Virus record (IMG/VR): IMGVR_UViG_3300027733_000059 | Span: 1 to 61,414 of that record | Length of the DNA: 61,414 nt | DNA from: a virus | Lineage: Duplodnaviria > Caudoviricetes | Reading direction: 5' to 3' (one strand) | Shown here: positions 5,759 through 20,152 of the stretch, in pieces | How positions within the stretch are numbered: the first letter of the stretch is position 1 | Layout of the letters: each line of letters begins with the position of its first letter | Notes under the pieces: model-generated | The model's database searches: none | The model's input: the letters and a program-made list of their open reading frames with translations, nothing else | Told to the model about the DNA's origin: nothing | Position numbers and translations under genes: made by a program

Positions 5759-6736
5759 TTACGCGACGATTGTGTTCCAGAAATAACCGAGGTCAGATGC
5801 AATTACCTTGTTATCGAAAGCCATTTCTGCTTCGATACGGTCTGACTTGATTGATTCCATACGGAACTGTGAAGTACCGATTGTCTGTCCTAGTCCGCCT
5901 GAAACACCTGTCCAAGAGAAGGTGTAACCAGCAGAAGGAGTTAGTAGTCCTGGGTTTGGAGCAACGTGTGTTAGTAGAGCGCCCTTGCCATAAGCAAAGC
6001 CGTAAGCCTCTGATGCACCTTCGTTGTTCGTAGCCTTGACTGCCTTAGCAACCATAACGCGAGGGATGTCGAACATTGCTGCCAACATATCTGTTGTGAT
6101 TGTCTGTGAAGATGTGTACTTGATACGGTCTACCAAGTCAGGGTGATTCTTCAACTGACGGAATGTTTCGTAGCCAAGAACAAGTGTATTGGCTTCCATT
6201 CCTGTGTTTGAAAGAATCTCGCTCTTACCCGCTTCAATATCATTGATTGGGTCAGATGAAGTGTAGTCAGACCATTGCTTTGTCTGACCTGATGATGGAG
6301 TACCAGCAACACCTGTTACATCGTCTGCCCATACACCTGTTGTGAAGAAATCAGAAACGAACTGAAGTTCACGACGGAGCATTAGACGGCGAGTAACGAA
6401 CTCTGTTGCCTCACGAAGAGGATTCAAAGGAGCGTCTGCGTTTGCAGTTGTTTGGTCATCAACATCTTTGTGGAAAGCCCACACGTCTGCTGAATATGTA
6501 CCTGTTGAAAGGTTGTAACCTCCACCAGCAGATTCAGTTCCAGGCGCACGGCGTTGAGCCTCATCGCGGAACCAATCGTTCTTGGTGTAAGTAAAGAATT
6601 TGTCAGACTTCTTATCCACAGGAATTACTGGGAATACCTTGTCTGCAATGAAGTTGTCCTGATTTTGTAGGTATGCAACTGAGATGTTAGTCAGAATTGC
6701 GTCTACGTGGACGGAGTTAATATGTGGCTGTGGCAT
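5759..6736 (-). CDS. Major capsid protein
   Basis: 325 aa; VDAILTNISVAY...FIADKVFPVIPVDK and LKNHPDLVDRIKYT are typical of this MCP family; follows scaffold and cement. Confidence 0.9.
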   Translation of the reverse strand: MPQPHINSVHVDAILTNISVAYLQNQDNFIADKVFPVIPVDKKSDKFFTYTKNDWFRDEAQRRAPGTESAGGGYNLSTGTYSADVWAFHKDVDDQTTANADAPLNPLREATEFVTRRLMLRRELQFVSDFFTTGVWADDVTGVAGTPSSGQTKQWSDYTSSDPINDIEAGKSEILSNTGMEANTLVLGYETFRQLKNHPDLVDRIKYTSSQTITTDMLAAMFDIPRVMVAKAVKATNNEGASEAYGFAYGKGALLTHVAPNPGLLTPSAGYTFSWTGVSGGLGQTIGTSQFRMESIKSDRIEAEMAFDNKVIASDLGYFWNTIVA

Positions 6737-7149: not shown

Positions 7150-7947
7150 TTAGGCACCTTTCTCGGATAGGTATTGGCTGTAAAGGTCAGGGTTCTTTGT
7201 AGCAACATCAGCGAGCGCTTGCTCGAATGACTTTGCTACACCCTCTTCAACGGCTGACTTAGCAAGCGTAGTCATACGCTCGTAAGCATTGCCTGATTTG
7301 AAGTCCGCAGATTTGCCGATTTCTGCAAAAATAGAGGCTGATTCAGCCTGTGCATTGACAGATGCAAGTAGTTCTTCAACTGACTTTGCTAGGTCTGCAT
7401 CTACACTTGATAGACGGCGAAGTGCTGGTCCAACTTTTTCTGCATCGAGATTGAGGTTTGCCCAACCCTTTGCTTTTTCAACTGCTTCTGCATCAGCGTG
7501 AGCATCGCGTTCCTTTTGTAGTTCGGCGGTTGCTTCTTCTGCTTGCTTGCGGAAGTTTTCAATCATTTTGACGACTGACTCAGGCGCGGACTTCATATAG
7601 TCCATCTCCTCAGAGGATTCTTCTTCCATCTTCTTCTTTTTCTTTTCTTCTTCGGACATTTCAGCGTCCGCAGAAGCCTTGGCTAATGCCTCTTCAAGTT
7701 CAGAGATGCGAGCCTTAGCGATGGTTAGTTCCTCAGTAGGATTTACAACCTGCTCTTCAGTAGCCGTGGTAGATGTATCCTCCATTGTGGAGTCCTCCTC
7801 GGTGAGCGATTCGTCTAAAACCCTCTGAACTTCAGATTCTTCGGCGGACTTCATTACAAGCCAACCTTCGTGTAGATGAGCGGGATGGTCTACCCCGCTA
7901 GTTTCCTCAATGGCTAAATTCACCATTTTGCGAGTACGACCAGCCAA
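7150..7947 (-). CDS. Capsid scaffolding protein
   Basis: Acidic coiled-coil; C-terminal NPDLYSQY; many phi-x-K-[SA] sites; TTG start with AGGAG RBS. Confidence 0.8.
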   Translation of the reverse strand: MAGRTRKMVNLAIEETSGVDHPAHLHEGWLVMKSAEESEVQRVLDESLTEEDSTMEDTSTTATEEQVVNPTEELTIAKARISELEEALAKASADAEMSEEEKKKKKMEEESSEEMDYMKSAPESVVKMIENFRKQAEEATAELQKERDAHADAEAVEKAKGWANLNLDAEKVGPALRRLSSVDADLAKSVEELLASVNAQAESASIFAEIGKSADFKSGNAYERMTTLAKSAVEEGVAKSFEQALADVATKNPDLYSQYLSEKGA

Positions 7948-8049: not shown

Positions 8050-8313
8050 TTAGTTTATTAAAACCCTCGTTTGGGCTAGAGCCTCGGGCAAGTTTGGGCA
8101 AATCCACATTGAAAAGGGATTGTCGTTTGCCCAAAAACGCGCTGTTCTAAAATGGAAGTCATCATCATCCATTTTGCTCCACACAAAAAAGGCTTGGGAG
8201 TCATTAGGTAAATCAATTTGAATTCCTGCATAGCCAGGGGGCGTAGTAACTTTATTTGCCTTGAGATTCATTGAACTCAAAATCTCAATTGTGCTATCAA
8301 TAATTGTTTTCAT
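8050..8313 (-). CDS. Hypothetical protein
   Basis: 87 aa; its ATG overlaps (ATGA) the stop of the hidden frame 8310-8555. Confidence 0.6.
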   Translation of the reverse strand: MKTIIDSTIEILSSMNLKANKVTTPPGYAGIQIDLPNDSQAFFVWSKMDDDDFHFRTARFWANDNPFSMWICPNLPEALAQTRVLIN

Positions 8314-8555
8314 CGTTTATTTCGAGCAGGTGGGCGAAGGATGTCCATATCATCCATCCACCGAGGGTCATCGGCATTACCATCAAATTCGCCTTCGGTG
8401 TCATTCTCGTCATAACTAATCTTAGGTTTCTTGCCCTTATAGTTTTTTGGTTCAGAATTATCTTCACCTTCGGAATCATCAATGTTGTATTTTCCACCGT
8501 GCGTCTTTTGGTCGTGCGTGGCGCCTAGATGCTTGTCTAGGCTCAGGCTTTTTTT
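8310..8555 (-). CDS. Unannotated -1 frame extension of 8543..8947 carrying the tenth tag (KKSLSLDKHLGATHDQKTHGGKYNIDDSEGED...RPPARNKR)
   Basis: Open frame with no ATG/GTG/TTG between the upstream in-frame TAA and the tag; entered by a -1 slip at CTA AAA AAA GCC; its stop is coupled to the next ATG. Confidence 0.7.
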   Translation of the reverse strand, partial: KKSLSLDKHLGATHDQKTHGGKYNIDDSEGEDNSEPKNYKGKKPKISYDENDTEGEFDGNADDPRWMDDMDILRPPARNKR

Positions 8556-8947
8556 AGTGCTGAAGCCTTATGCCCTACAAGAGTTTCTGTTTCTTCGCCA
8601 TCTTTATAGATACGAATAAGAACTGCTGGGTCATCTTTTTCAGCCTTAATGCTAAATGATGATTTTGGAATTCCAAGAACTCCATCGCGCATAATATGTT
8701 CAATCTTGCCTTGTGCTGTTCCACCTGATGCTTGCCAAGAAACCATATCGCCAACCGTTAATCCTGAAGCCTTTTTCATTGCATAAGCCATATCTCGCAT
8801 AGCCTTTTCAATCATTGATTTAGCGTAACCCTTAAGACCTGCGATTCCCTTTTGATTGACCTGTTCCTCAATCATTGCGTACTCGTCGTCTTTCATATTT
8901 TTCATAGGACCATTGCGGAGTTCTTTGAGAATCTTTTTGTCTTTCAT
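8543..8947 (-). CDS. Head-module protein with a C-terminal Tudor/SH3-like domain (DUF2945/Hva1-Tudor-like)
   Basis: LTVGDMVSWQASGGTAQGKI...LVGHKASALKK; ATGA overlap with the protease stop. Confidence 0.65.
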   Translation of the reverse strand: MKDKKILKELRNGPMKNMKDDEYAMIEEQVNQKGIAGLKGYAKSMIEKAMRDMAYAMKKASGLTVGDMVSWQASGGTAQGKIEHIMRDGVLGIPKSSFSIKAEKDDPAVLIRIYKDGEETETLVGHKASALKKA

Positions 8948-9645
8948 TTAGTTTCCTTTGGCTTTTTTTTCTTAGGATTCATAATTGTATCAACGTGAAC
9001 ATCTGTAGCAGTCGGGTCGTTTTTTTCCATATCTACATATAGGCGCTCTGCTCGTCCACCAATTGAATAGCCAAGGATTTCCCCACGTTGAATCTTTTCC
9101 CACGCCCAATCCTCCCAAATAACACCAAGAAATACTGTGTTTGCTGGATAAGTATGATTGACCATAATTCCGCTTGGGGTTGTAATTGGAACTGTTAGTT
9201 CGTATGGAAATGCCATAACTTCAACCCACTCACCTGCAACAATGTCGCGATTATGTTGTAATCGAATACGACGGTCATTGCTTCGGACATAATCCCAAAC
9301 TGCTCTTTGCAACTCCTCGGCATCTGTCCACTCATTGTGTGCATCGAGACGGTCAGGAATATACATAGCGCCAAGTGTGTATTTCTTTTCGCCTTCAGCC
9401 TTAGATACTTCATAAGAGCCGATTGATTTAGCAACATCATTGAAGGCAATTGGGAAAGCCTTTTGAGCCAACTCGAAAGTAATCTCTTCGAGGTTGGCTT
9501 CGCCATCTACTAAATACTGTGCAATATAGGTACTCGGGGTCCAGTTAGGCGCATCCCAGCGCTCTTCAAGGATTCGGTTAGATTCGACATTGAAGCGCCA
9601 CAGAGTATGTGGCTCATTACGGTAAAAGTTTACAAAATATCGCAA
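8944..9645 (-). CDS. Prohead serine protease (XkdF-like) with an N-terminal immunity-like domain
   Basis: YIPDRLDAHNEW...LQH...WEKIQRGEILGYSIGG; probable TTG start at 9645 after GGAGG. Confidence 0.8.
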   Translation of the reverse strand: MRYFVNFYRNEPHTLWRFNVESNRILEERWDAPNWTPSTYIAQYLVDGEANLEEITFELAQKAFPIAFNDVAKSIGSYEVSKAEGEKKYTLGAMYIPDRLDAHNEWTDAEELQRAVWDYVRSNDRRIRLQHNRDIVAGEWVEVMAFPYELTVPITTPSGIMVNHTYPANTVFLGVIWEDWAWEKIQRGEILGYSIGGRAERLYVDMEKNDPTATDVHVDTIMNPKKKKPKETK

Positions 9646-9649
9646 TTTG

Positions 9650-11854
9650 TTATGCCCTCCTCTCAGGGGATAGTTTACCAACCCCAGTTGATTTTATCAA
9701 GCCAGCCTGTTGAGCCGTCTCGAACTGTTGCATAATCAAAGTACCGACGCCAAGAATAGTTGCATAGTTAGATGGGCGAGGAACTCGGGTCGCTATCTTT
9801 ACCATTCTGTCCCAAGAACTACGGCGCTCGCCATCATCTGTGGATTTTCTGTAAATCTCATAAATATCGTGAAGAGCCTTTTCCTTAACTTGGAATGACT
9901 TCGGAGTATGAATCTGTAGTTCAACTTTAATACCATCGCGCTCTGCCTTTATGTTTACACCATCATAAGGGTCGCCTGATTGCCAAAAATTCTTAACTCT
10001 AACTTTCCATCCAGTTGCTTCAAATGCTGTAACGGCAGATTGCAATGTACCTGCGTAATCGGCATCTTTAACTGAAAGTGTGTAACGGTTGGCGTCAGAG
10101 ATTTCTTCTGATGCTTTCTTTCTATCACCTTGGTATCCCTGCTCGGCGTCTAAGTCAATCTTTCGAGCAAGAGAATCTGTAGATTTAACTCTTTGTGAAA
10201 GACCTTCAAGTTTTGCGCCTGACTGTTGTGCAATGCCTTCAACTAATTTTGTAATTACTGGTTCTGCTGCAACTGCTTTCTCACGAACTGCGCGAGCAAG
10301 TGCAATTGCTTCTTTTGATTGCCCCTGCTCAGGTTCTTTATCTGCAACCATATTGTTAGCCCACGCACCGTGCGTCTTTTGGTCGTGCGAGCCGTGCTTT
10401 TCAAGAGGTTCCCAAATAAATGATTTTTTAGCAGGTGCGTCAATTGCTTGACCTTCAAAACCATTATCCGCAGCCCACTTTAACGAAATATCTAATGCTT
10501 CTTTTGCATTTATTGACAGACGATAAACAGGCAACTCAGTTCCAGGATTATCAAAAGAAAAAGCAACAGCAGCGCCCCAAGTATGGTGTCCATCAATAAC
10601 ATAACCATCTTTAGAAATGAGAATTCTTTCATCTTTTGGAATCTTGCCATCTTCTTGAAATTTATTGTAAATGGCACCTGAACGAGAAGCGGAAATTTCT
10701 TTCTGAACTGGCTTTAGGGTTGTTGGGTCAATTTTTTCTTTTTCGGCGGTAACGCCTTGTTCGGCTTCAATCTCTGCCAAAAAGCGAGCGCGTTCTTTAC
10801 CAGGAATTTGAGGCATATCTTTGCGAGCAATTCCCATACCCTCATCGCCATAGAGCAATGTTCCCTTGATACTTAACTCTGTTAAGTCAGGGTGGTCGGT
10901 TCTCTTAGATGCCTTCATTAAAAATGCGGATAAGTTTTCAGGCTCAACTTCAGGGTGTCCTCCAGCCAAGATTTCCTCAGCGATTCCATCAGCCCAACTG
11001 CCGTGAGTTTTTTGGTCGTGCTTTCCTGGATTATGTTTTGCAACTTCTTCTTTCTCGGCGCGAGCAACCATTGACTCAGCCCACGCGAATCCTGCATCTC
11101 CGCCCCAAGCGTCCCAAGCGACTCGACCCGCTGACGGATAACCCTTTTCTCCTTGGCTAAATCCAACTGCGTTCTTATCAACTTCGTGACGAGAAAAGAA
11201 AGATTTCATACGCTTTAAAGTATCTAGTGAGATTGATTCACCTGATGCTAACTGTGATGCACGATGACGACCAACTGAAGTGAAACCGCCTCCAGCCTTA
11301 CCCTCGCTAATCCAATCAAGCGCACGGCGAGCAGCATCTCGAACTGTTTTTGGTGGAGTGTTATCTGCCTTTGAAAAACGGTGAATTTGGTCAAGGCGTT
11401 CTTGAGCCTTTTCCTTTGATGGATAGGTTCCAAACTTGCGTCGTCCCGTCGAATCATAAACCGTGAACTCGCCATCCTCTTCACGAATCATTTTCTCAAA
11501 TGGGTCAAGAGGAATCTCAATTGGCTCGATACGCATTTCATAACCTTGAGAAGTTAGGAAAGTCTGTACATTGCCCACATTGCTACCGCTGGATTTAATA
11601 ACCTCTGCGACCATATCGGCTGGTAACGAAGAGCCAAGCGATGTCAGGTCTACGTCATTGATTGAATCAACGAGGATTTCATAGGCATCCCAATCATCCT
11701 TTGGAGCCTCCATCTTGCGACGAGCCAACTCATTGAGGATTGTGTGGTGAACTTCGATTGTCGCTGGTGAGGCTTCAGACTTATGGATACGCTGATGCAG
11801 CGCGAGTAGTCTCTCAGCGCTTAAAGAAATTAACTTTGGGGCTATATCCGCCAT
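9650..11854 (-). CDS. Tagged polyprotein 4: small head-associated domains, ParB/Srx-like module, RelA/SpoT-like alarmone synthetase module
   Basis: ILISKDGYVIDGHH; RVKSTDSLARKI...DANRYTL...YDGVN...ELQIHT; two HDQKTHG tags. Confidence 0.8.
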   Translation of the reverse strand: MADIAPKLISLSAERLLALHQRIHKSEASPATIEVHHTILNELARRKMEAPKDDWDAYEILVDSINDVDLTSLGSSLPADMVAEVIKSSGSNVGNVQTFLTSQGYEMRIEPIEIPLDPFEKMIREEDGEFTVYDSTGRRKFGTYPSKEKAQERLDQIHRFSKADNTPPKTVRDAARRALDWISEGKAGGGFTSVGRHRASQLASGESISLDTLKRMKSFFSRHEVDKNAVGFSQGEKGYPSAGRVAWDAWGGDAGFAWAESMVARAEKEEVAKHNPGKHDQKTHGSWADGIAEEILAGGHPEVEPENLSAFLMKASKRTDHPDLTELSIKGTLLYGDEGMGIARKDMPQIPGKERARFLAEIEAEQGVTAEKEKIDPTTLKPVQKEISASRSGAIYNKFQEDGKIPKDERILISKDGYVIDGHHTWGAAVAFSFDNPGTELPVYRLSINAKEALDISLKWAADNGFEGQAIDAPAKKSFIWEPLEKHGSHDQKTHGAWANNMVADKEPEQGQSKEAIALARAVREKAVAAEPVITKLVEGIAQQSGAKLEGLSQRVKSTDSLARKIDLDAEQGYQGDRKKASEEISDANRYTLSVKDADYAGTLQSAVTAFEATGWKVRVKNFWQSGDPYDGVNIKAERDGIKVELQIHTPKSFQVKEKALHDIYEIYRKSTDDGERRSSWDRMVKIATRVPRPSNYATILGVGTLIMQQFETAQQAGLIKSTGVGKLSPERRA

Positions 11855-11885
11855 ACCGCAATGATAGCGGATAGGTTTACAACTG

Positions 11886-12032
11886 TTATTTAGTTTCTTG
11901 AACTGAGGTTAGTTTTTGTTCCACTACCTTGTCCAAGAAAGCAATCTCGTTATCGTCAGGCAAGCCTTCCATCTCAACAGGCATCGAGGCGTGAAGTTTT
12001 GATAACGCGTCTAATCTATCTTGTCTGCTCAT
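11886..12032 (-). CDS. Unannotated 48-aa protein (MSRQDRLDALSKLHASMP...)
   Basis: ATG 4 nt after the 12037 stop; fills the intergenic gap; no strong RBS. Confidence 0.55.
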   Translation of the reverse strand: MSRQDRLDALSKLHASMPVEMEGLPDDNEIAFLDKVVEQKLTSVQETK

Positions 12033-12036
12033 AGGG

Positions 12037-14670
12037 TTAGTTTACCGCAGGAGCGGGCTTTTCGCGAGGGGTGCCGTCGTAGACCAAGCCATCACCATCA
12101 CGGTCAATTGGACCCTGTTGGATTGTGCGACCTTCTTGGCTCAATCCCTTTTGATACTTCATATTGAGGCTATCTAGCAATCTTGCCCCAGCCCAAGAAT
12201 ACACGGGCTTGCCAGTAATTTGATTAGTGCCTGTCTCAAATCTATCGCCATACCCAATCATCAAGAAATCATTTGGAATAGGGAAATCATCCGAGTTAAT
12301 TGTTTTTGTTGAACCGCGGAAGGTGGTTGATGTTGGGTCATATTCTGTAACCATTTTTGAAACTAAAGAATCAAACTCAACTCGGTTTGCTGAACCCTCT
12401 GCAAAATCAGCGGAATTGTACATTCTGCCTTTTATCAACTCTCGCACATTTTGACTCATATATCTTTCATCAAAATCAAAACCTGATTTAGCCCAATGGC
12501 GAGCGCCATCCCAGGCTGTACCCACATCAATTCTTCCAATTCCCACAGCCACATACCAAGCCTCTTGTTGGGCTATAAACTTTGAACCAAATCCAACTCC
12601 AGCGTAATCATCGTCCATTTTGAATAGGTCGTGTTCAACAGCCCAAATTTCATTGCCATCCTTATCTTGGCTTCTATAGAAACTGCGTTGGAACTCACCA
12701 GCAGGGAAACCAGCATCATCCGTAACTTCGCCTTGTACGACTAATCTCTCGCCATCAAGATAAATGTTTGTTGTCGATGAACTAAGGGTTGTGGCAACTT
12801 CACCCTGAGCATTTTTTACTTCATAGGTCATTCCAAAAACTTCATCGAACGGACCGTGCAAATCTTCAGGATTAAATTCTTCGCCACCATTTTGTTCTTG
12901 CCACAATTGCGCCAAGGTTCCATCATCGCTTTCGATAAATTCCTGAACCATTTCGTCTTGAATTTTTTCGTAAAGGCGGTTTCTTAATTCTTCATTTGCT
13001 TTGTCGGTAGCCCCTTGGTCCTCATACTCATATTTTGCTTCCTGGAAAGCCTCTTCAACTCTTTCATCAATACCATCAGTTGCTTGGGCATACATTCCTG
13101 AGTCATTATTAACCATAAGTGTTAAATCTGACATATCAGCCTGTTCCGCAGGGGTCAGAGCGTTTTCTAAATCTTCTAATGAAGGACCAACGCCATCCAT
13201 TGTGTTAATTAGTGCTTCATCTTCCGCGGAGACACCACGCGCCCAATTACCGTGACTAGATTGGTCGTGTTGTTCGTGCTTTAAGACTGGCTTTAATCCA
13301 GCAGCAAAACGAATAACTTTAATCTTTTGAAATACCGCTGGAACGGACCAAAACTCTTCAGGGAGCAAGGCAACCTTTTGGTCAGCGAACTGCTTGCCTC
13401 TGTTATTAAAGAATGAATTCTGTCCGCGTGTTTCTGTTGTTAGCGCAGCGCGAGCCTTTTCTGTAAACATCTGAGAGTGGTGAACCCAAGCAGCCTCTTC
13501 GCCATCTTGACCAAATCCTCGACCAGTAGCAGCGTGTCCAAAGTAATCGTGAACTGCTCGGAATTTATTGTTTTGTGTATCTGAGAAAAGCGGGTGTGCG
13601 CCTGTTGTCTCTGTTTGCAAAACCTTTAACACCCCACGGCTGACATCATCAAACATTTCCTTTGATGTCTTATATGGGTCCTCTGCAACGAACTCAACCT
13701 TGACTCCTAGAGTCTTGGTCATAAAATCAAACTGCTCTTCTACTTCAGATGCCAGCGCTTCGTACTCATCGACTGCATCTCTATCCATCTTCGGAAGATT
13801 CTCATAGACATCAGCGATACGCGCTGCTCGTTCGCGATTGGCTACAACTTTGGTGTAATCAATTGTTTCGTCAGGATTTAAACCTTTTTTGAAAGCGTAT
13901 TCTTTTGCGCCATCTCGGGCGCCCTTGACTGAATCGGTTGGGTATCTATCCCCTGCCCAATTACCGTGAGTTGCTTGGTCGTGTTCACCTTGTCGGTGTT
14001 TTTGGACCTGGTACCTGCCAAGGCAGATATGGGGATTTAGAGATTGCCCTCTATCGCTTGCAAGATTTCGTCCACGAAGGCGTCCTTCTCCTTCTCGGTC
14101 ATTTCCTTGACTGGCTTCGGAGTTTCCACCAAGACGGGCTTTGTTTGTTCGCTCATCGACCTCATCCTTCATATAAATATACGAGTCATTGATGACATCG
14201 TAGATTGCTTTTTGTTCGTTTTTAAATCCTGCTCGTACACCCTCTGACCGAGAACTGTATCTTCTCGAGACATCTAAGTAAAGTTTTCCTTCCTCAACCC
14301 AAGCGCCGAAGAAACTGCCCTTGTTATCAAGCAACTCAGCGTGGTCGTTGATGTAATCCCTCAAAGCAGTCCTCAAAGCAGCCCTAGAAGCCTTCAGAGG
14401 CGCGAAATCAAGCACTCTCTCGGCTCCTACATCAGAGGCGATAAAGCCATCTTTAGCAGATTGTTTGGTGCGGATGTCAATGCTGAATCCAGGAGTTTTT
14501 TTCTCACTCAACTTGTCTATCAATCCCGTGATAGTTCTACCTTCAACGGTTTGCCCATCAACTGTGAGGTTTGCCCAATTACCGTGAGTCTTTTGGTCGT
14601 GCGAGCCGTGCTTTTCAAGGACGAGAGAAAGCCCTTTAGAGGATGAGTATTGAAATTTTTCTAGGTTCAT
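12037..14670 (-). CDS. Tagged polyprotein 3: unknown module, HDYFGH module, acidic linker plus GNAT-like module
   Basis: Three tags; RAVHDYFGH...GEEAAW; YAGVGFGSKF...GARHWAKSGF resembles GNAT motifs A/B; probable start MNLEK (ATGA overlap with 14667..15476). Confidence 0.8.
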   Translation of the reverse strand: MNLEKFQYSSSKGLSLVLEKHGSHDQKTHGNWANLTVDGQTVEGRTITGLIDKLSEKKTPGFSIDIRTKQSAKDGFIASDVGAERVLDFAPLKASRAALRTALRDYINDHAELLDNKGSFFGAWVEEGKLYLDVSRRYSSRSEGVRAGFKNEQKAIYDVINDSYIYMKDEVDERTNKARLGGNSEASQGNDREGEGRLRGRNLASDRGQSLNPHICLGRYQVQKHRQGEHDQATHGNWAGDRYPTDSVKGARDGAKEYAFKKGLNPDETIDYTKVVANRERAARIADVYENLPKMDRDAVDEYEALASEVEEQFDFMTKTLGVKVEFVAEDPYKTSKEMFDDVSRGVLKVLQTETTGAHPLFSDTQNNKFRAVHDYFGHAATGRGFGQDGEEAAWVHHSQMFTEKARAALTTETRGQNSFFNNRGKQFADQKVALLPEEFWSVPAVFQKIKVIRFAAGLKPVLKHEQHDQSSHGNWARGVSAEDEALINTMDGVGPSLEDLENALTPAEQADMSDLTLMVNNDSGMYAQATDGIDERVEEAFQEAKYEYEDQGATDKANEELRNRLYEKIQDEMVQEFIESDDGTLAQLWQEQNGGEEFNPEDLHGPFDEVFGMTYEVKNAQGEVATTLSSSTTNIYLDGERLVVQGEVTDDAGFPAGEFQRSFYRSQDKDGNEIWAVEHDLFKMDDDYAGVGFGSKFIAQQEAWYVAVGIGRIDVGTAWDGARHWAKSGFDFDERYMSQNVRELIKGRMYNSADFAEGSANRVEFDSLVSKMVTEYDPTSTTFRGSTKTINSDDFPIPNDFLMIGYGDRFETGTNQITGKPVYSWAGARLLDSLNMKYQKGLSQEGRTIQQGPIDRDGDGLVYDGTPREKPAPAVN
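14037..14156 (-). CDS. Candidate overprinted 39-aa ORF nested out of frame in polyprotein 3
   Basis: MSEQTKPVLVETPKPVKEMTEKEKDAFVDEILQAIEGNL; AAGGA 8 nt upstream of ATG. Confidence 0.5.
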   Translation of the reverse strand: MSEQTKPVLVETPKPVKEMTEKEKDAFVDEILQAIEGNL

Positions 14671-15476
14671 TGTTTTACCAATTCTATATCCCAAACCTTG
14701 CCACGTTGAGCAACGACTTTAAACTTACTTCCTCGAGGCATAAGGAACTCAGCCTCAGTCGTAGAAGGTGTCCATCCATACATAGGTTCGTGATAGCCCG
14801 CAGGAAAGATTCCTTTTGTACCAGCGGGTAACTTCATACGGAAAACTAAACCGTCGTAATAAGGTTGAGAACCGCCAAATTGTTGAGCAACTCCAGCATC
14901 AATTGTCGTGGAGGTGTAGCCCTTATCTTCCCAAGTATCTCCAACTTTGAGAGTTTCAAAAAACTTTAATCCGTTGCCTTTGACTCCCCGATAGGTAACT
15001 AACTCCTCGGATAGCGGTGGAGCAACATCCATCGCCTTATCAAGTAAATCAATTGTAGATTTATAGCCATCTTCACTTATCTGAGGGTCGCGCAGAGCCT
15101 CATTCATATCGTAGCCAAGGCGACTTTCATAATTGCTTATCGCTCCTGAAAACTCAGGATGAGCAGCCTCGGTGAAACCCTTTAATCGTTGGCTAAATAG
15201 TTTCTCCATAAAATAAACTTCTTTATCTGTATCAGACGCAAAAACTTTTATTTCATCTTTGAACCAAGCAGCAAGATTTTCATAATTGCCTGAAGCCCAG
15301 TTACCGTGGGTTTTTTGGTCGTGTTCACCGTGCTTTCGAACTTCTTCTTCTTGAGGTTTAGGAATTAAATCAGGATGAATTGGGTCAATAATTTCCCAGC
15401 CGTAATCTTTAGTCTCCAAGAGGTACACCTGCCTCTCTGTAAGCGGTCTCAAGTCCGTCTGCGAAACTTGCTCCAA
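14667..15476 (-). CDS. Tagged protein 2: ADP-ribosyltransferase (VIP2/C3-like R-S-E type)
   Basis: MNEALR...TYRGV...KGYTSTT...EAEFLMPRGSKFKV; one tag; probable TTG start near 15419. Confidence 0.85.
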   Translation of the reverse strand: MEQVSQTDLRPLTERQVYLLETKDYGWEIIDPIHPDLIPKPQEEEVRKHGEHDQKTHGNWASGNYENLAAWFKDEIKVFASDTDKEVYFMEKLFSQRLKGFTEAAHPEFSGAISNYESRLGYDMNEALRDPQISEDGYKSTIDLLDKAMDVAPPLSEELVTYRGVKGNGLKFFETLKVGDTWEDKGYTSTTIDAGVAQQFGGSQPYYDGLVFRMKLPAGTKGIFPAGYHEPMYGWTPSTTEAEFLMPRGSKFKVVAQRGKVWDIELVKQ

Positions 15477-17730
15477 ATAATTTACTTGTTATGAATATAT
15501 GATTTCGAGCGAACTCTACTCCGTGTCCGCCGTGAGGTGAAGTAGCACTAATCGTTGTAGCATAATGAGCAATTTCGTGAACAATAGTAGGTTCCGCTTT
15601 TGAATAACCTCTGCTTACTCTCAAAATACTTACGGGTAGGTCGCCCTTAAATCCAATTTGATACGCCCCAGCCTCATTAGCAGATGAGACTTTAACCTCA
15701 AGATTATTTCCAGCAACCCCACCTTTTCCAAATGCCTCAACAAACCAATCTTGTCTTATTACATCTCTTACATAACCATTAAGACCTCGAGGCGTTCCAT
15801 CTAAATGCTTTTGTCCTAAAGGCGAAATTAGCGAGGTTGTAACTTTTTTAGACCAAGCAGTAAAATCTTTTGAATACTGTTTGTAGGCTTTGTCGTAATC
15901 AGCGTAATTAGTAAATTGTGTGCGATTAGGGGCAGAAGGCATATCTGCATTTTTATCTTGAATTTGATTATGATTTTTTTCTTCAGCAGCATAAACTTTG
16001 CTTACAAGAGGGTCAGGTTGTTTTTTCAATTCAAACATCTCGCGATGGCTTAATCCGCTTCCACCTTTTTGACCTGTAGCCCAGTTACCGTGAGTGGACT
16101 GGTCGTGTCCTCCGCCTTCGTGCTTTACAACACCACTCCAGCCTTTTGCATCATCTGTCAAAGAAAAAGAATGGTCAATTTTGATACCGTCTTGAGAATA
16201 AGAACGAGCAAAATTTAACATTGCAGTAGCAATGCCTTGGCGTTTGTATTCAGGTTCTACTTGAATTCTATCTATTATCGCTCCCGCTTCAGGTACAAAA
16301 TTATTAGGGCGACTAGATTCAAGGTCAGCAATTTGTTTCACTCCTCCATCAACAAAAAGATAACCTTTTGTAGTCATCGAGATATTTCCGTCTGCTGTTT
16401 TTTCGTTGTCGTGAAGTAGTTTTATTTTTGTGCCATCTTTAGTTTCATAAATGGCTGTCACTCTATTAGATGTCATTCCATCGTCATCGGTAGGATAAGA
16501 CTTATGTTCAATTTGTGTAATTCGTTGCTGAACTTCAATTTCTTTTGCGGAGCGCGCTGAACTATTAGCCCAAGAGCCGTGCGTCTTTTGGTCGTGTTCT
16601 TGGTGCTTTATTACATCTTCTTCATCACGGATAAAAGGAATAGTGTTAAATAAAGTATGAAAAATCATACCTAGTTCAACGCCTTTTTTAAGCGTATGAG
16701 GCTCAATCATTTTCACTTCAATGACCGTAAATGTTGTAGGCTCTTTGCGAGTCCAAGAATTAACTGTGATGTCTTGACCATCTTTAATTGGTCTTGTCTG
16801 ACGGTCATTTGTATACTTTACCGTAGAAGTCTCAATTTTAGAAAAGTTTCCAGTAATGGCTCCATCTCTAATAATTTCATAGCGGACTTTTGCTGCTGGG
16901 TCATTACTATCCATACTGTCCCAACTACGGTCCCTTGGGTCCTGGAATCTATACCCAGTTACTAAATCTTCGCCAGGTCTATTTAATTTGAAAGTTCTTG
17001 CTGAGACGGCACCTCTAGCCCAGTAAGGAGTAGTTACTGTTGTAATTCCTACTACTTGAAATTTACCGCTAGTAATAGTTTCAAAATCTGACGGGTAAAA
17101 ACTTTTCTCAGGCTTGACTGAGACACCTTTTGCGCCTTCTTGAATTTTTAGAATTACTTTTGTGTCGCTTGGTGTGTAAGACCTGTCTGCTGCATACCAT
17201 TGAGCCACACCCAAAGACCGAGTGGTTGAAACCAACGGCATATCAATTGTGTCACCCTCTTTGAGATTAGTGAACTGCTCAAGCAACGCTTTTGATTCTG
17301 CATCACCCGCTGCCATACCTCTATACAAAGTTGGTTGCGGACGACCATTGGCAATTGCTGTTAGAACTGCCTCGGTTTGATTTCTTACTGCGCCCGTTGA
17401 GGATGCACCAAAACCGCGTTGAGTTAAATAATTCTCAGAGCCACCAACATCTTTATCACTTTTAGGAACTGGCAAGCCAAGCATCTCGCCCGCGTACTGA
17501 CGGTATAAATCTACAAACTGGTCGCCATCGACACCGTGTTCCCAGTTTTCCCAAAATTTATCGGTGGTTCCAGTTGCGTTGCGTGGAGCGTCAGGAACTT
17601 TATCTTTTGGACTCCATCCCGATAACTCAGAGGTAACGCCTGTAGCCCAGTTTCCGTGTGTCTTTTGGTCGTGTTCTTGATGCTTGATAACTGGACGAAG
17701 CCCTGGCTCAAATTTAATCACTAGACTCAT
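15409..17730 (-). CDS. Tagged polyprotein 1: ADP-ribosyltransferase-like, GNAT and HEXXH zincin modules
   Basis: LYRG...LVSTTRS...DFETITSGKFQV; IDRIQVEPEYKRQGIATAML; IVHEIAHY...HGGHGVEF; three tags. Confidence 0.8.
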   Translation of the reverse strand: MSLVIKFEPGLRPVIKHQEHDQKTHGNWATGVTSELSGWSPKDKVPDAPRNATGTTDKFWENWEHGVDGDQFVDLYRQYAGEMLGLPVPKSDKDVGGSENYLTQRGFGASSTGAVRNQTEAVLTAIANGRPQPTLYRGMAAGDAESKALLEQFTNLKEGDTIDMPLVSTTRSLGVAQWYAADRSYTPSDTKVILKIQEGAKGVSVKPEKSFYPSDFETITSGKFQVVGITTVTTPYWARGAVSARTFKLNRPGEDLVTGYRFQDPRDRSWDSMDSNDPAAKVRYEIIRDGAITGNFSKIETSTVKYTNDRQTRPIKDGQDITVNSWTRKEPTTFTVIEVKMIEPHTLKKGVELGMIFHTLFNTIPFIRDEEDVIKHQEHDQKTHGSWANSSARSAKEIEVQQRITQIEHKSYPTDDDGMTSNRVTAIYETKDGTKIKLLHDNEKTADGNISMTTKGYLFVDGGVKQIADLESSRPNNFVPEAGAIIDRIQVEPEYKRQGIATAMLNFARSYSQDGIKIDHSFSLTDDAKGWSGVVKHEGGGHDQSTHGNWATGQKGGSGLSHREMFELKKQPDPLVSKVYAAEEKNHNQIQDKNADMPSAPNRTQFTNYADYDKAYKQYSKDFTAWSKKVTTSLISPLGQKHLDGTPRGLNGYVRDVIRQDWFVEAFGKGGVAGNNLEVKVSSANEAGAYQIGFKGDLPVSILRVSRGYSKAEPTIVHEIAHYATTISATSPHGGHGVEFARNHIFITSKLFGASFADGLETAYREAGVPLGD

Positions 17731-18734
17731 TGTGTTCCCCTATCAGGTGGAACTATCACCATTGTGCAACGGCAATGAGGGTGAACAATAGGCGCCTCAA
17801 GCCCGATAGAGAACACACCATTCCAAGGTGCCAACTCACCATCAAGCGGAGCGCATATCTCGCAAGTGCGCTCATCTTGGGCTGTTACCCACATCTTTTG
17901 AGCGCTAGGGTCTATGAAACCCGCTTCATCGGCTTGCTTCCAGCCTTCATAGCGACCTTCATTTTGTGCAATCTGAATCTCGGTGCGGGCAATCATTGTT
18001 GCTCGGGCAGAACGCAATCTATCTGCGTATTTAGATGCGGAGGTGGCAGATGCTTCGCGGGCTTTTGCCTCTTTCATCCCGCCTTTAATCAAACGCTCCA
18101 ACTCACGCTTTTCAAACTTTGTTACTGCTTCCGCCCACTTTGGGTGTAAACCAATAATGTTTTTAATACGGCGGGCTGTAGCGCGATAATCTATTTGTTC
18201 ATTAAATGAATCAATAATAATCTTACGAATTGCAATGCGTGTTAATTCATCAATGCTAACAATTAACTGCCCTGCTCTTTTAGATGCAAAGGCTAAAGAA
18301 TTAGGATTTGTTTTATTAAACGACATTGAGAATGTAACTGGAGGTGGCGTTGGGCTTGCCCAATCAGGAATCTTTGTAAAATCCATATTAGCCATAGGCG
18401 CCTTGTTTGTAATCTTTACAGGCTTAGGCAGAAATGCAGGTAAGAATAATTTAGGTGCAATAGATTGAATCTGTTGTATTGCCTCTTTACCGCCTATTTC
18501 GATAGATGTCATCAAGGCATCTTCAATCTGCTTTCTATTTCCTGCAACAGTAATTGCATTAAGAAGTCGATTTAAAGAATCAGGGTCCAGGCGTTGAATG
18601 ATACGAGCCAACTCTTCAACCTTGATTGTGTTGGTTGATTTACGAATCGCTTCGTAGAGAACGCGGGCTAACGCCTGTTCTTCCGCTGTTAATGGATTAC
18701 GACGGTTTCCGTCTCTGCCAAAGATTAGAGGCAT
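17727..18734 (-). CDS. MuF / SPP1 gp7-family head morphogenesis protein, short form
   Basis: RATMIARTE...KMWVTAQDERTCEICAPLDG...HPHCRC; directly after the portal. Confidence 0.9.
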   Translation of the reverse strand: MPLIFGRDGNRRNPLTAEEQALARVLYEAIRKSTNTIKVEELARIIQRLDPDSLNRLLNAITVAGNRKQIEDALMTSIEIGGKEAIQQIQSIAPKLFLPAFLPKPVKITNKAPMANMDFTKIPDWASPTPPPVTFSMSFNKTNPNSLAFASKRAGQLIVSIDELTRIAIRKIIIDSFNEQIDYRATARRIKNIIGLHPKWAEAVTKFEKRELERLIKGGMKEAKAREASATSASKYADRLRSARATMIARTEIQIAQNEGRYEGWKQADEAGFIDPSAQKMWVTAQDERTCEICAPLDGELAPWNGVFSIGLEAPIVHPHCRCTMVIVPPDRGTQ

Positions 18735-18736
18735 TG

Positions 18737-20152
18737 TTAATCCACATCGCCGTCTAGCGGTTCTGCTCCTTCAGGAATCTCTAACTCTTCTTCCAATGAT
18801 GGAGGTGCATCGAATCCAGCGTCATCTGCCCCTTCAGGCATAGGAGGCATACCGAAGTTTGCTCCATCGTGTTCTGCTGGAGGTAAACCTGCCAACTCAC
18901 GAAGATAATCTTCCAACTTAGGGTCAGGCATAAGAACGCCCGCTTGAGCCAACTTAGTTACGAAGTCTGAAATCTCAGTTAAATCAACGTGGCTTACTTC
19001 ACCGTAAGTTAGGTAAGGAGCGCGAGATATATCCATTCCGTTTAACTTCATCAAGCGAGGAATAGCGTATTGATTCATTACTTCAGCAATGTTTTTAGCA
19101 ATTGAATCAACTGCCATTGACCATAAATCCATCTTTGATGCGCCAAGAGCGTAAGAGCCAACTCTGTCTGAGCCTAGAAGGATAAAGTCTGACAGGATTG
19201 ACATTGACATACGTTGGTCATAGCGATTGATAATCTTGTCTGTATCGAATTGACGAGAACCGCCTGATGAGAGCAACTGTAAGTCAAACATCTTGTGTCC
19301 AGCATCGTCATACATCGCTGGCATAACAATGCCTTCTTGTTCATTGCGCTTGATAGATGTAACAATGCTTTGAATCGAGGCTAATACTTGCTGCTGCTCG
19401 ACTGTTGCTGATGAAGAAAGATATTCAGGTGGTAGGTAGGCAACTGGCAAACCTGCTAAGTCGCGCTCAATACCGATTGCTTCAATTTCTTCAATACGGC
19501 GCTTGAAAAACCAAGGACGGTAAGCATTACGAAGAATGGAGCGACCTTCAGGGTTATTCTTTGTTGTTACTGTACGGAAAAGCAAAGCCTTATCAATTGG
19601 AATTGTATGTATTCCACCCGTTGATGGGTCTACTTGCACCATCGCTTGAATTCCGCCGTCTGCATCAATCTCCCAACGGAATAAAGTTTCCTGGGCGCGA
19701 ATAGGCATCTTGCGCCAACCGATTTTTCCGTCGTTGTGCTTTGAGCGTTTCTTTGGGTCGTTGCCATCGCCCTTGCGGACTTTGTAAACAATTTCGTGAT
19801 ACGAGAATCCAAAAACTAACATTGAAAGAATTTGTGAAAGTGTTGCATCCCAGGAATCGGACATATCGTGAATACACGATTCAATAAATGCTGCTGCTTC
19901 TTTATCTTCAGGCTTTACATCGCCGTCTGATGAATCATCGCTATATGGGTCTACGCGCCATTCAAGACGAGTAATAACTTTTTCAACTGCAAACAGCATT
20001 GACCCGATTGTTGGGTCGTTATCTGCCATTTCGCGGTATGTCTTTGCACCGCGTATGCCTCTAAGATTGACGAGAAATTCTTCATAAACTGTTCCGCCTG
20101 AACGGCGTAAACCAGTTGAGCCAAACTCCTGTAGGTCAGGTCTTTCTGCCAT
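18737..20152 (-). CDS. Portal protein (DUF935 / Mu gp29-like)
   Basis: 471 aa; NNPEGRSILRNAY...IERDLAGLPV...GSYALG; acidic tail. Confidence 0.9.
   Translation of the reverse strand: MAERPDLQEFGSTGLRRSGGTVYEEFLVNLRGIRGAKTYREMADNDPTIGSMLFAVEKVITRLEWRVDPYSDDSSDGDVKPEDKEAAAFIESCIHDMSDSWDATLSQILSMLVFGFSYHEIVYKVRKGDGNDPKKRSKHNDGKIGWRKMPIRAQETLFRWEIDADGGIQAMVQVDPSTGGIHTIPIDKALLFRTVTTKNNPEGRSILRNAYRPWFFKRRIEEIEAIGIERDLAGLPVAYLPPEYLSSSATVEQQQVLASIQSIVTSIKRNEQEGIVMPAMYDDAGHKMFDLQLLSSGGSRQFDTDKIINRYDQRMSMSILSDFILLGSDRVGSYALGASKMDLWSMAVDSIAKNIAEVMNQYAIPRLMKLNGMDISRAPYLTYGEVSHVDLTEISDFVTKLAQAGVLMPDPKLEDYLRELAGLPPAEHDGANFGMPPMPEGADDAGFDAPPSLEEELEIPEGAEPLDGDVD

Follow-up and report, generated by a model that had tools for sequence, protein, structure and literature searches.

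The window analyzed here is the entire virus record IMGVR_UViG_3300027733_000059 (Duplodnaviria; Caudoviricetes), a stretch of 61,414 bases. Its head module, read from the minus strand, contains a cassette of cargo genes in which protein modules of several kinds open with a common short peptide, hereafter called the tag, with the pattern [VL]-x-K-H-(2 or 4 residues)-HDQ-x-[ST]-HG-x-W-A. Ten copies of the tag span positions 8496-17691, all on the minus strand. Pfam and PHROG matches placed the cassette within the head module, between the gene of a MuF-like protein and those of an XkdF-type protease and a scaffold-like protein, which is the setting proposed for it when the DNA was first read without database searches (the sequence-only reading). 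From the upstream to the downstream border, the module comprises the following genes and features, with lengths of open reading frames (ORFs) in residues.

18737-20152, minus strand: portal protein of the Mu type, the upstream border of the head module (PF06074 Portal_Mu, E 7e-42; phrog_113).
17727-18734, minus strand: MuF-like head morphogenesis protein encoded by its own gene, 335 residues (PF04233, E 9e-14; phrog_3517, E 5e-70).
15409-17730, minus strand: cargo polyprotein B, 773 residues, with tags at residues 7-42, 367-401 and 529-562 as placed by a hidden Markov model (HMM).
14667-15476, minus strand: cargo protein C, about 261-269 residues, start uncertain (PF03496, E 8e-15; phrog_3895).
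12037-14670, minus strand: cargo polyprotein D, 877 residues from the ATG at 14670 (phrog_3170, second module).
11886-12032, minus strand: acidic ORF of 48 residues between D and E.
9650-11854, minus strand: cargo polyprotein E, 734 residues (phrog_2859 over the full length).
8944-9681, minus strand: XkdF-type head maturation protease, Peptidase_S78_2 (PF14550, E 7.7e-13).
8543-8947, minus strand: Tudor-like small head protein G, 134 residues (PF11160 Hva1_TUDOR, E 2e-8).
8549-8555, minus strand: run of seven A (A7), the site of a -1 frame change between G and tag 10 with its acidic tail.
8310-8567, minus strand: open frame of 85 codons without a start, holding tag 10 and an acidic tail.
8050-8313, minus strand: ORF of 87 residues, the next after the 8310-8567 frame.
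7150-7947, minus strand: scaffold-like protein with nine hydrophobic-x-Lys-[SAGH] sites (phrog_13547).
Between the scaffold and major capsid protein genes, minus strand: protein of 131 residues.
5759-6736, minus strand: major capsid protein, the downstream border of the head module (phrog_1005, E 2e-102; PF03864, E 6e-5, just below the cut-off).

The regular expression H[DNE]Q..H[GAS], applied to all six frames of the window, gave exactly 10 matches, every one on the minus strand; in 200 mononucleotide shuffles of the window, such matches averaged 0.05 and never exceeded 1. The HMM, made from 108 instances of the tag, picked the same ten sites and none besides, with i-Evalues of 3e-17 to 3e-6, and its next-best matches in the window had i-Evalues of 4 or more. 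The ten copies and their places, as the sequence-only reading had them, were thus borne out by both searches. Each copy below was found by the regular expression and by the HMM, and is given with the three residues that precede its first His.

17644-17691, minus strand: copy 1, VIK then HQEHDQKTHGNWA, HDQ..HG core at 17653-17673.
16567-16614, minus strand: copy 2, VIK then HQEHDQKTHGSWA, core at 16576-16596.
16078-16131, minus strand: copy 3, VVK then HEGGGHDQSTHGNWA, four-residue spacer, core at 16087-16107.
15294-15341, minus strand: copy 4, VRK then HGEHDQKTHGNWA, core at 15303-15323.
14572-14619, minus strand: copy 5, LEK then HGSHDQKTHGNWA, core at 14581-14601.
13954-14007, minus strand: copy 6, VQK then HRQGEHDQATHGNWA, four-residue spacer, core at 13963-13983.
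13240-13287, minus strand: copy 7, VLK then HEQHDQSSHGNWA, core at 13249-13269.
10991-11044, minus strand: copy 8, VAK then HNPGKHDQKTHGSWA, four-residue spacer, core at 11000-11020.
10358-10405, minus strand: copy 9, LEK then HGSHDQKTHGAWA, core at 10367-10387.
8496-8540, minus strand: copy 10, degenerate, LDK then HLGATHDQKTHGG, without W-A, core at 8496-8516.

Seven columns (K, H, H, D, Q, H and G) were constant in all ten copies in the window, the T, W and A of the tag were each present in nine of them, and [VL]-x-K directly preceded the tag in all ten. Over 331 unique instances the consensus was V-x-K-H-(2 or 4 residues, never 3)-H-D-Q-x-[TS]-H-G-[NS]-W-A-x-G. Behind the tag comes a stretch rich in Gly and Ser, predicted to be flexible.

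Synonymous variation between the copies, to which the sequence-only reading had drawn attention, was present at the K, T, G, N and A codons. It did not extend to the core His and Asp codons, which were CAC in 20 of 20 and GAC in 10 of 10 cases (head genes overall: GAC 120 and GAT 202, CAC 64 and CAT 31), and the core codons CAC GAC CAA were found in 9-10 of the 10 copies. Such uniformity may reflect selection for accurate decoding at critical residues. Among 183 unique tags from other contigs, the first His was encoded by CAC in 96 and CAT in 87, Asp by GAC in 153 versus 30, and Thr by ACT in 86, ACC in 61, ACA in 23 and ACG in 13, with Gly in all four codons. Identical runs of DNA among the tags were merely about 9-14 bases long. 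Since synonymous positions vary freely across these 183 tags, it is the peptide that is conserved and not the DNA.

The stop codon of the MuF gene overlaps the start of the first cargo gene (ATGA). Polyprotein B runs from a leader and tag 1 into an ADP-ribosyltransferase (ART)-like module, followed by tag 2 with a GNAT-like module and tag 3 with an HEXXH zincin-like module. Protein C is composed of a leader, tag 4 and a VIP2-like ART. In D, a leader and tag 5 precede a module of unknown fold, tag 6 precedes a module with an HDYFGH motif, and a leader-like strand and tag 7 precede a large GNAT-like module. Polyprotein E begins with a module that has no tag and continues with tag 8 and a ParB-like module, then tag 9 and a RelA/SpoT-like module of toxin type. 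The claim that each copy opens a module therefore stands in that the tags lie at the starts of domain-sized modules; two modules, the N-terminal one of E and the Tudor-like domain, go untagged. C shares the final 40-68 bases of B (15409-15476), read in another frame, and offers several possible TTG or GTG starts; a relative (P0205) starts about 10 residues further in. The acidic 48-residue ORF begins 5 bases past the stop of D, the last module of which is GNAT toxin-like, and its position is comparable to that of the small immunity ORFs found behind genes of MuF toxins.

The module identities proposed in the sequence-only reading differed in how well they held. The VIP2-like ART of C was firm (PF03496, above the curated cut-off). 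Assignment of the HDYFGH module of D was moderate (phrog_3170, E 6e-53); its homologues include gp205 of Rhodococcus phage E3, annotated as a structural protein, and proteins of cluster C mycobacteriophages, and no tags were found in E3 gp205 or in gp101 and gp102 of Mycobacterium phage Rizal, which are homologues or neighbours of this module. The ParB-like module of E was likewise moderate: its Atlas score was 0.93, and it is 40% identical to proteins of F116-like Pseudomonas phages that are annotated as structural or internal. Homologues of some modules in isolated phages, namely E3 gp205 and the F116-like proteins, are thus annotated as structural or internal virion proteins. For the C-terminal module of E, also moderate, the RelA/SpoT-like identity draws on 39% identity to the C-terminal domain of pneumococcal prophage MuF proteins; this module matched the XopAD C-terminus (E 3e-25) and had no Pfam RelA_SpoT match. 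The remaining identities were weak: the GNAT module of B matched at E 1e-4 to 2e-3 and its zincin module, which has an HEIAH motif, at E 1e-4 (TIGR04338) and 2e-3 (SprT-like), all below curated cut-offs, and the ART assignment of the first B module is an Atlas lead alone (score 0.88). Part of the third D module resembled a GNAT fold by Foldseek, again weakly (toxins GmvT, AtaT and TacT, E about 3e-3). The nearest matches there were tRNA-acetylating toxins, and a Foldseek search of the D model against solved structures gave nothing at E <= 0.001.

The untagged N-terminus of E (11021-11854) shares 47-55% identity over about 80-100 residues with regions annotated as "major capsid protein" in the Roseobacter phages CRP-811, CRP-701 and CRP-406 and in Synechococcus phage S-CBS3. 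This module may be a head-anchoring domain.

Copy 10 departs from the statement that five genes carry the ten copies: it is degenerate, lies outside the called genes and is in the -1 frame relative to the 134-residue Tudor-like ORF, to which it is joined through the A7 run. The stop of the Tudor-like gene comes directly after this run, in the context C-T-A7-G. Past the run, the -1 frame continues for about 75 codons, with tag 10 and the acidic tail, and ends by an ATGA overlap with the gene at 8050-8313. The copy lacks four residues, A-W-A-N, and scored 22.8 bits with the HMM versus 40-58 for the other nine. In relatives the corresponding junction is in frame, through an A9 run in L007 and L029 and without a run in L030. 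Because the -1 frame ends in the overlap with the next gene, tag 10 and its acidic tail are read from the sequence as the natural C-terminal extension of the Tudor-like gene. The frame break at A7 could stem from an error in the homopolymer, from a genuine and recent deletion, or from programmed slippage.

The tag was widespread in viral metagenome data. A scan of viral contigs for HDQKTHGxWA found at least 206 stretches, many with 2-5 copies. Among 4980 candidates from a word-seeded profile search, 1072 clusters (90% identity) reached E <= 0.001, and an exhaustive profile search of 1.84 billion representatives (50% identity) found 616 at E <= 0.001 and 186 at E <= 1e-10; the counts of 1072 and 616 are lower bounds, with single-tag proteins probably falling under the threshold. 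At the top of the exhaustive search stood a protein of 7059 residues with 20 tag matches (P0121), together with a protein of 2201 residues with 9. Tags were combined with ART domains in P0122 (9 tags, 8 ART domains) and in P0126 (8 tags, 6 ART domains). In one genome from each of 185,579 bacterial and archaeal species, the Lys-type tag occurred in 4 stretches, all on metagenome-assembled contigs of Actinomycetota. Searching 50,697 isolated-phage records with two 40-residue tag stretches by tblastn gave no match at E <= 1 and chance-level matches at E <= 10, and megablast of the cassette against isolated phages gave none, in a collection that may leave out close kin of the window. No published description of the tag was found in the literature searched (for example, with the string "HDQKTHG", or with "HDQ" and minor capsid), in agreement with the sequence-only reading, which knew of none.

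Within proteins, the tag occupied a regular place. In the 120 best-scoring tag proteins, the first HDQ lay at residue 18-26 (10th to 90th percentile), successive tags were 130-510 residues apart, and the last tag lay 98-793 residues before the end. Domains found alongside it included GNAT, SprT-like and ATLF-like zincins, DUF3626, DUF7178, NUDIX, DRAT, ART-PolyVal, ddrB-ParB and a Zeta-toxin-like kinase. Module order and content varied strongly between related proteins, and the junctions were constant. In an AlphaFold model of D (66-row alignment), the confidence measure pLDDT fell below 50 in the three tag regions (residues 1-43, 172-240 and 411-479), and the segments between these regions and after the last were more confident. 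For P0127, a natural fusion of protease and tag, pLDDT was below 50 at residues 131-164, 352-397 and 402-467, around its tags. The models thus place the tags in predicted flexible linkers at module starts.

Gene context was sampled in 24 tag-bearing viral contigs, picked from the first 80 loci listed in the scan for one exact variant. MuF was present in 21 of the 24, including 6 of the 6 at least 90% complete, and PF14550 in 16, including 5 of the 6 near-complete ones; these counts lack independence, since the majority of the contigs come from relatives of the window. The near-complete contig in which PF14550 was missed (G019) ends ahead of the place expected for the protease gene. Wherever a contig had both genes, the tags lay between MuF and PF14550. 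MuF was inside a long open frame in five contigs (G001, 626; G008, 757; G014, 1247; G022, 1721; and G011, 2541 residues), and the tags came after the MuF domain in both fusions inspected (G008 and G014). In several lineages the XkdF-type protease domain ran directly into a tag, 12-16 residues past its Ser motif G-Y-S-V-G-G. Tags were also found between Tudor-like domains and between segments of scaffold-like proteins. Outside the window too, the tag was tied to head modules and to domain starts, a link that the sequence-only reading had proposed to check.

The residue before the first His of the tag was K in 610 of 650 unique tags (255 proteins). Where it was another residue, the choice was consistent within a protein: P0029 had L before all 6 of its tags, P0163 had Y before all 4, P0210 had F before both and P0240 had A before both, with E in 4 tags of P0151 and 3 of P0186, and R in 5 tags of P0251 and 2 of P0217. 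No relatives of P0163 (Tyr type) or P0029 (Leu type) were found in viral contigs, and neither P0210 (Phe type) nor a Phe-type DNA pattern gave anything against metagenome contigs. The Glu-type pattern returned two contigs only, apparently of one lineage. Three Phe-type loci came up with the Tyr/Phe pattern, and these were also what the Leu-type pattern gave.

Sites like those before the tags were enriched in the scaffold. The window scaffold contains hydrophobic-x-K-[SAGH] 9 times versus 1.6 in shuffles (p about 3e-4), and the Glu version 4 times versus 3.0, which is no enrichment. Other head proteins of the window had at most a weak excess of the Lys motif (p 0.02 to 0.06, in three, tag sites included). 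When all stop-to-stop ORFs of at least 120 residues were scanned for this motif, the scaffold was the sole ORF flagged in the window, and in G001 and G018 the sole flagged ORF was the one at the scaffold position. On contig L210, which represents the Glu type, hydrophobic-x-E preceded 5 of 5 tags, and the protease-scaffold ORF (phrog_15531), which has no PF14550 match, contained hydrophobic-x-E-[SAGH] 11 times versus 2.6 (p 3e-4) and the Lys version once versus 0.95. In G025, a complete phage of 101 kb, hydrophobic-x-Phe preceded 7 of 7 tags; its protease is of the Mu-I type (Mu-like_Pro PF10123, E 4e-19) and is fused to a scaffold-like tail, and the phage has no PF14550. Thus, from lineage to lineage, the residue before the tag switches along with the type of protease and, for the window and the Glu lineage, along with the scaffold motif.

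The other head components of these phages also differ. The portal is of the Mu type in the window and of the lambda type in L210, the capsid protein is Phage_cap_E-like in the window and G025 and Phage_capsid_4 in L210, and no MuF Pfam match was found among the L210 ORFs scanned.

The protease of the window matched PF14550 with 49 bits against a cut-off of 24. It has 434 homologues; invariant columns include D113-A-H115 and G204-Y-S206-I-G-G, and His115 and Ser206, invariant in 121 protease sequences, are the putative catalytic residues. No published cleavage specificity was found for an XkdF-type protease; in the sole paper found on XkdF and capsid cleavage, a head-processing role for this peptidase is only proposed, for some jumbo phages. 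A complex prediction with the protease (121 rows) and a 40-residue tag (108 rows) scored 0.00 twice, in runs without controls that have no bearing on binding. The protease has a conserved N-terminal region of 85 residues outside the best PF14550 match (residues 91-213), and a nearly invariant C-terminal tail, D-V-H-V-D-T-I-M-N-P-K-K-K-K-P-K, which could be a capsid-targeting or self-cleavage region of its own. The scaffold starts with V-N-L-A-I-E-E-T-S-G-V-D-H-P-A-H-L-H-E-G-W-L-V-M-K followed by S, and this segment ends in a hydrophobic-x-Lys-Ser site and resembles the start of a tag-bearing scaffold-like protein, P0221 (E-L-S-L-T-P-N-P-A-N-...-K).

In other lineages, different conserved junction peptides stand behind the XkdF-type protease domain in place of the HDQ tag. 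One type is like G-K-W-A-P-G-P-N-A-G-W and another like G-R-G-R-M-G-G-P-L-A-A-G-P-x-G-x-C-x-C-P-x-C-G-H (P0378, P0379, P0382, P0384, P0394, P0395 and P0242; P0390, P0391 and P0393), and therefore several families of header tag may exist. Many XkdF-type proteases (P0398-P0441) are N-terminally fused to enzymes, among them 2H phosphoesterase, NUDIX, methyltransferase, DNA ligase, uracil-DNA glycosylase and rubrerythrin-like domains; none of these had an HDQ tag by regular expression. Such fusions explain why the protease domain is called "RNA ligase" or "DNA methyltransferase" in PHROGs.

From these observations we infer cleavage, packaging, ejection and a reader of the tag, in the following scheme. 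The products of the five genes between MuF and the scaffold would be built into the procapsid and would leave it later with the DNA, as cargo enzymes with ADP-ribosyltransferase, acetyltransferase-like, zincin-like, ParB-like and RelA/SpoT-like modules. Each tagged module would begin with a two-part junction, a hydrophobic-x-Lys site and then the header tag. The XkdF-type protease (8944-9681) would cut after the Lys at the tags, as it would at the hydrophobic-x-Lys sites of the scaffold, removing the leaders and splitting the polyproteins into about ten modules, each with the tag as a new N-terminus that starts with His. The tag itself would be an address that brings cargo into the head or retains it there. 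Taken whole, this is the reading we favor, with somewhat more confidence than doubt.

Its two parts draw on different evidence. Cleavage after Lys, proposed in the sequence-only reading, is now indicated indirectly: the residue before the tag varies by lineage while the tag stays constant, and in the window and the Glu lineage it matches the scaffold motif, so the simplest reading would make it the residue before the cut (P1) of the phage's own head protease. The number of about ten released proteins leaves out the two untagged modules, and copy 10 is degenerate and out of frame. The tag is unlikely to be the recognition signal of the protease, because it is constant across lineages with another cut-site residue and another protease family. 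By elimination, it is most likely a packaging or retention address, because the tag and its junction are the sole feature common to stand-alone and chained cargo modules: the leaders of stand-alone cargo are short and of several unrelated types, with the junction alone in common. A broader proposal would make the tag a universal, protease-independent cargo address of tailed-phage capsids, by which cargo is taken in, freed and injected with the DNA; its reader would then be a component or property common to phages of different portal, capsid and protease families. This extension is advanced tentatively, and with more doubt than confidence.

The cassette resembles several known systems. Internal proteins IPI-III and the ART Alt of phage T4 enter the procapsid by an N-terminal capsid-targeting sequence and are injected with the DNA. 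The T4 prohead protease gp21 cuts at (L/I)-x-Glu, and such sites fill the scaffold core. As in T4, sites of the form hydrophobic-x-P1 are found at the cargo junction and throughout the scaffold. Unlike the T4 targeting sequence, which lies before the cut and is removed, the tag follows the putative cut and would be kept by the cargo; it is also common to distant lineages with different proteases and chains many modules in one polypeptide. The tag may therefore work like a capsid-targeting sequence, by analogy, and is not a member of that family by sequence. The protease gp21 and its LPE motif are treated in PMC12991175.

Iyer et al. 2017 (PMC5512222) described phage polyvalent proteins, in which one polypeptide has several effector domains and is predicted to be packaged, injected and processed. 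Members of the class, from phages or conjugative elements, combine two to fifteen unrelated domains. In the available text of that paper, these proteins are like the cassette in combining ART, GNAT, zincin, ParB-like and RelA/SpoT domains in one polypeptide near portal and terminase genes. B, D and E each consist of three modules delimited by tags or linkers, and the order portal, MuF, cargo, protease, scaffold, capsid gives them the context of packaging genes. None of the signature domains of polyvalent proteins (ART-PolyVal, MPTase-PolyVal, ddrB-ParB and LPD) matched the window proteins in Pfam at E <= 0.01, and relatives with the tag do share domains of this class (ART-PolyVal in P0151, P0163 and L210; ddrB-ParB in L207). 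PMC5512222, supplements aside, differs in that the available text describes no header peptide or junction code and the strings "linker" and "boundar" are absent from it, and it credits zincin or Hint peptidases with processing and not the head protease.

According to Jamet et al. 2017 (PMC5576092, in the text available), MuF toxins are confined to prophages and temperate phages. Like their genes, the cargo genes lie near portal and MuF, and small ORFs follow some of them, as immunity genes do. Unlike them, MuF is a separate gene in the window, with fusions in relatives, and a temperate setting did not emerge, the Lys-type tag being limited to the 4 stretches among the genomes of 185,579 species, with no integrase search made in the window. 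The text of PMC5576092 available describes no junction motif, and the strings "motif," "linker" and "cleav" are absent from it. The cassette has a further likeness outside the phages. In encapsulins, a short conserved cargo peptide steers unrelated enzymes into an HK97-fold shell by binding a known pocket, with no link to proteolysis. Unlike the conserved shell protein of encapsulins, the capsid protein belongs to differing families in tag-bearing phages. Polyvalent or MuF-fused phage effectors come closest among the known systems. The finding is a widespread addition to what is known of capsid-packaged polyvalent effectors, and it points to a shared loading route that has apparently gone undescribed.

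Several points weigh against the scheme of a head-protease cut and a retained address. Neither residues 1 to about 275 of E nor the Tudor-like domain is preceded by a tag. Hydrophobic-x-Lys sites like those at the tags are not depleted inside cargo modules, where their off-tag numbers (5 in B, 3 in D and 6 in E) are close to those in shuffles. Covariation of P1 and scaffold draws on two formally tested lineages, K and E. In the Phe lineage (G025), no ORF passed the motif enrichment test, and in the C-terminal part of the scaffold only 5 of 7 Phe are followed by S, G or H. The shuffles ignore helical periodicity, by which a coiled-coil scaffold could of itself favor hydrophobic-x-Lys-Ser/Ala. 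In the model of the natural fusion, the tag was not placed in the protease, the region being of low confidence. No cleavage, N-terminus or virion proteome data were found in the literature for tag-bearing phages, and the kinship of the context contigs belongs here as well.

In a rival reading, the proteins would be packaged whole; the tag would serve, in repeats, for docking to DNA or a head component or as a spacer, and the Lys would belong to the binding motif and not to a cut site. Compared with the tag, a usual protease site is far shorter and less well conserved, the tag regions are predicted to be flexible linkers, and N4 virion RNA polymerase, a polyvalent protein, is packaged unprocessed according to the available text of PMC5512222, which also counts against our scheme. 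A binding motif explains none of the blockwise switching of P1 (K, E, F, L, Y and R) beside a constant tag, however, nor its match to the scaffold motif in the window and the Glu lineage and its shift with protease type, and the short unrelated leaders that precede the junction in stand-alone cargo are propeptide-like. We therefore regard packaging of uncut proteins as unlikely.

Cleavage could also serve a tag that acts after delivery, as an exposed N-terminus rich in His and Asp that binds metal or a host factor and so stabilizes, activates or localizes the effectors. Such a role would fit the three invariant His, the Asp and the Gln, which are kept across different portal, capsid and protease families with no single head protein as an obvious common reader. 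It would not explain why tags are also found on scaffold-like segments, on Tudor-like head proteins and behind the protease, where no host role is evident. Being compatible with cleavage, this proposal competes with the address part of our scheme only, and on that part it appears distinctly unlikely.

Processing might instead be the work of a cargo-borne peptidase, such as the HEXXH zincin-like module of B, or of self-cleavage. The HEIAH-motif module lies behind tag 3, with its weak sub-cut-off matches, SprT-like and ATLF-like zincins recur among tag-bearing proteins, and the available text of PMC5512222 predicts autoprocessing of polyvalent proteins by such metallopeptidases. Many tag arrays, however, have no Pfam zincin match in the same protein (ART only in P0122, ART-type only in P0126), P1 matches (in the window and the Glu lineage) a motif in the scaffold, the classic substrate of a head protease, and shifts with the type of head protease, and natural fusions put the tag directly after an XkdF-type protease domain. 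Processing from within the cargo is thus very unlikely. Nickel-assisted or intein-like self-cleavage was considered and dropped, the conserved Ser/Thr being at the wrong distance from the His and an Asn-Cys/Ser/Thr junction being absent.

Least probable of all is that the tag marks a recombination cassette boundary, like the VENN pre-toxin motifs of polymorphic toxins, with a peptide of little function: variable modules between constant junctions and the uniform CAC GAC CAA core, set against the GAT preference of the genome, would suit it, but synonymous positions are free across the 183 tags and identical DNA is limited to runs of about 9-14 bases, and a role in recombination could in any case coexist with an address that follows a protease cut.

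To our knowledge, how phages pick the proteins that are carried in the capsid and injected is known in detail for few model phages, such as T4 and P1. For polyvalent and MuF-linked effectors, carriage in the capsid and injection remain predictions. The predicted loading of these effectors now gains a testable anatomy, a cut residue that tracks the protease and a separate peptide on the cargo modules. In annotation, the tag can be used to flag candidate injected effectors, for anti-defense or host takeover, in metagenomic phage genomes where domain searches fail, and it can guide the splitting of polyproteins ahead of structure prediction. If the tag is indeed an address, proteins of choice could be loaded with it into the heads of phages in laboratory phage-host systems, and if that address is universal, hundreds of uncultured lineages would share one portable loading code.

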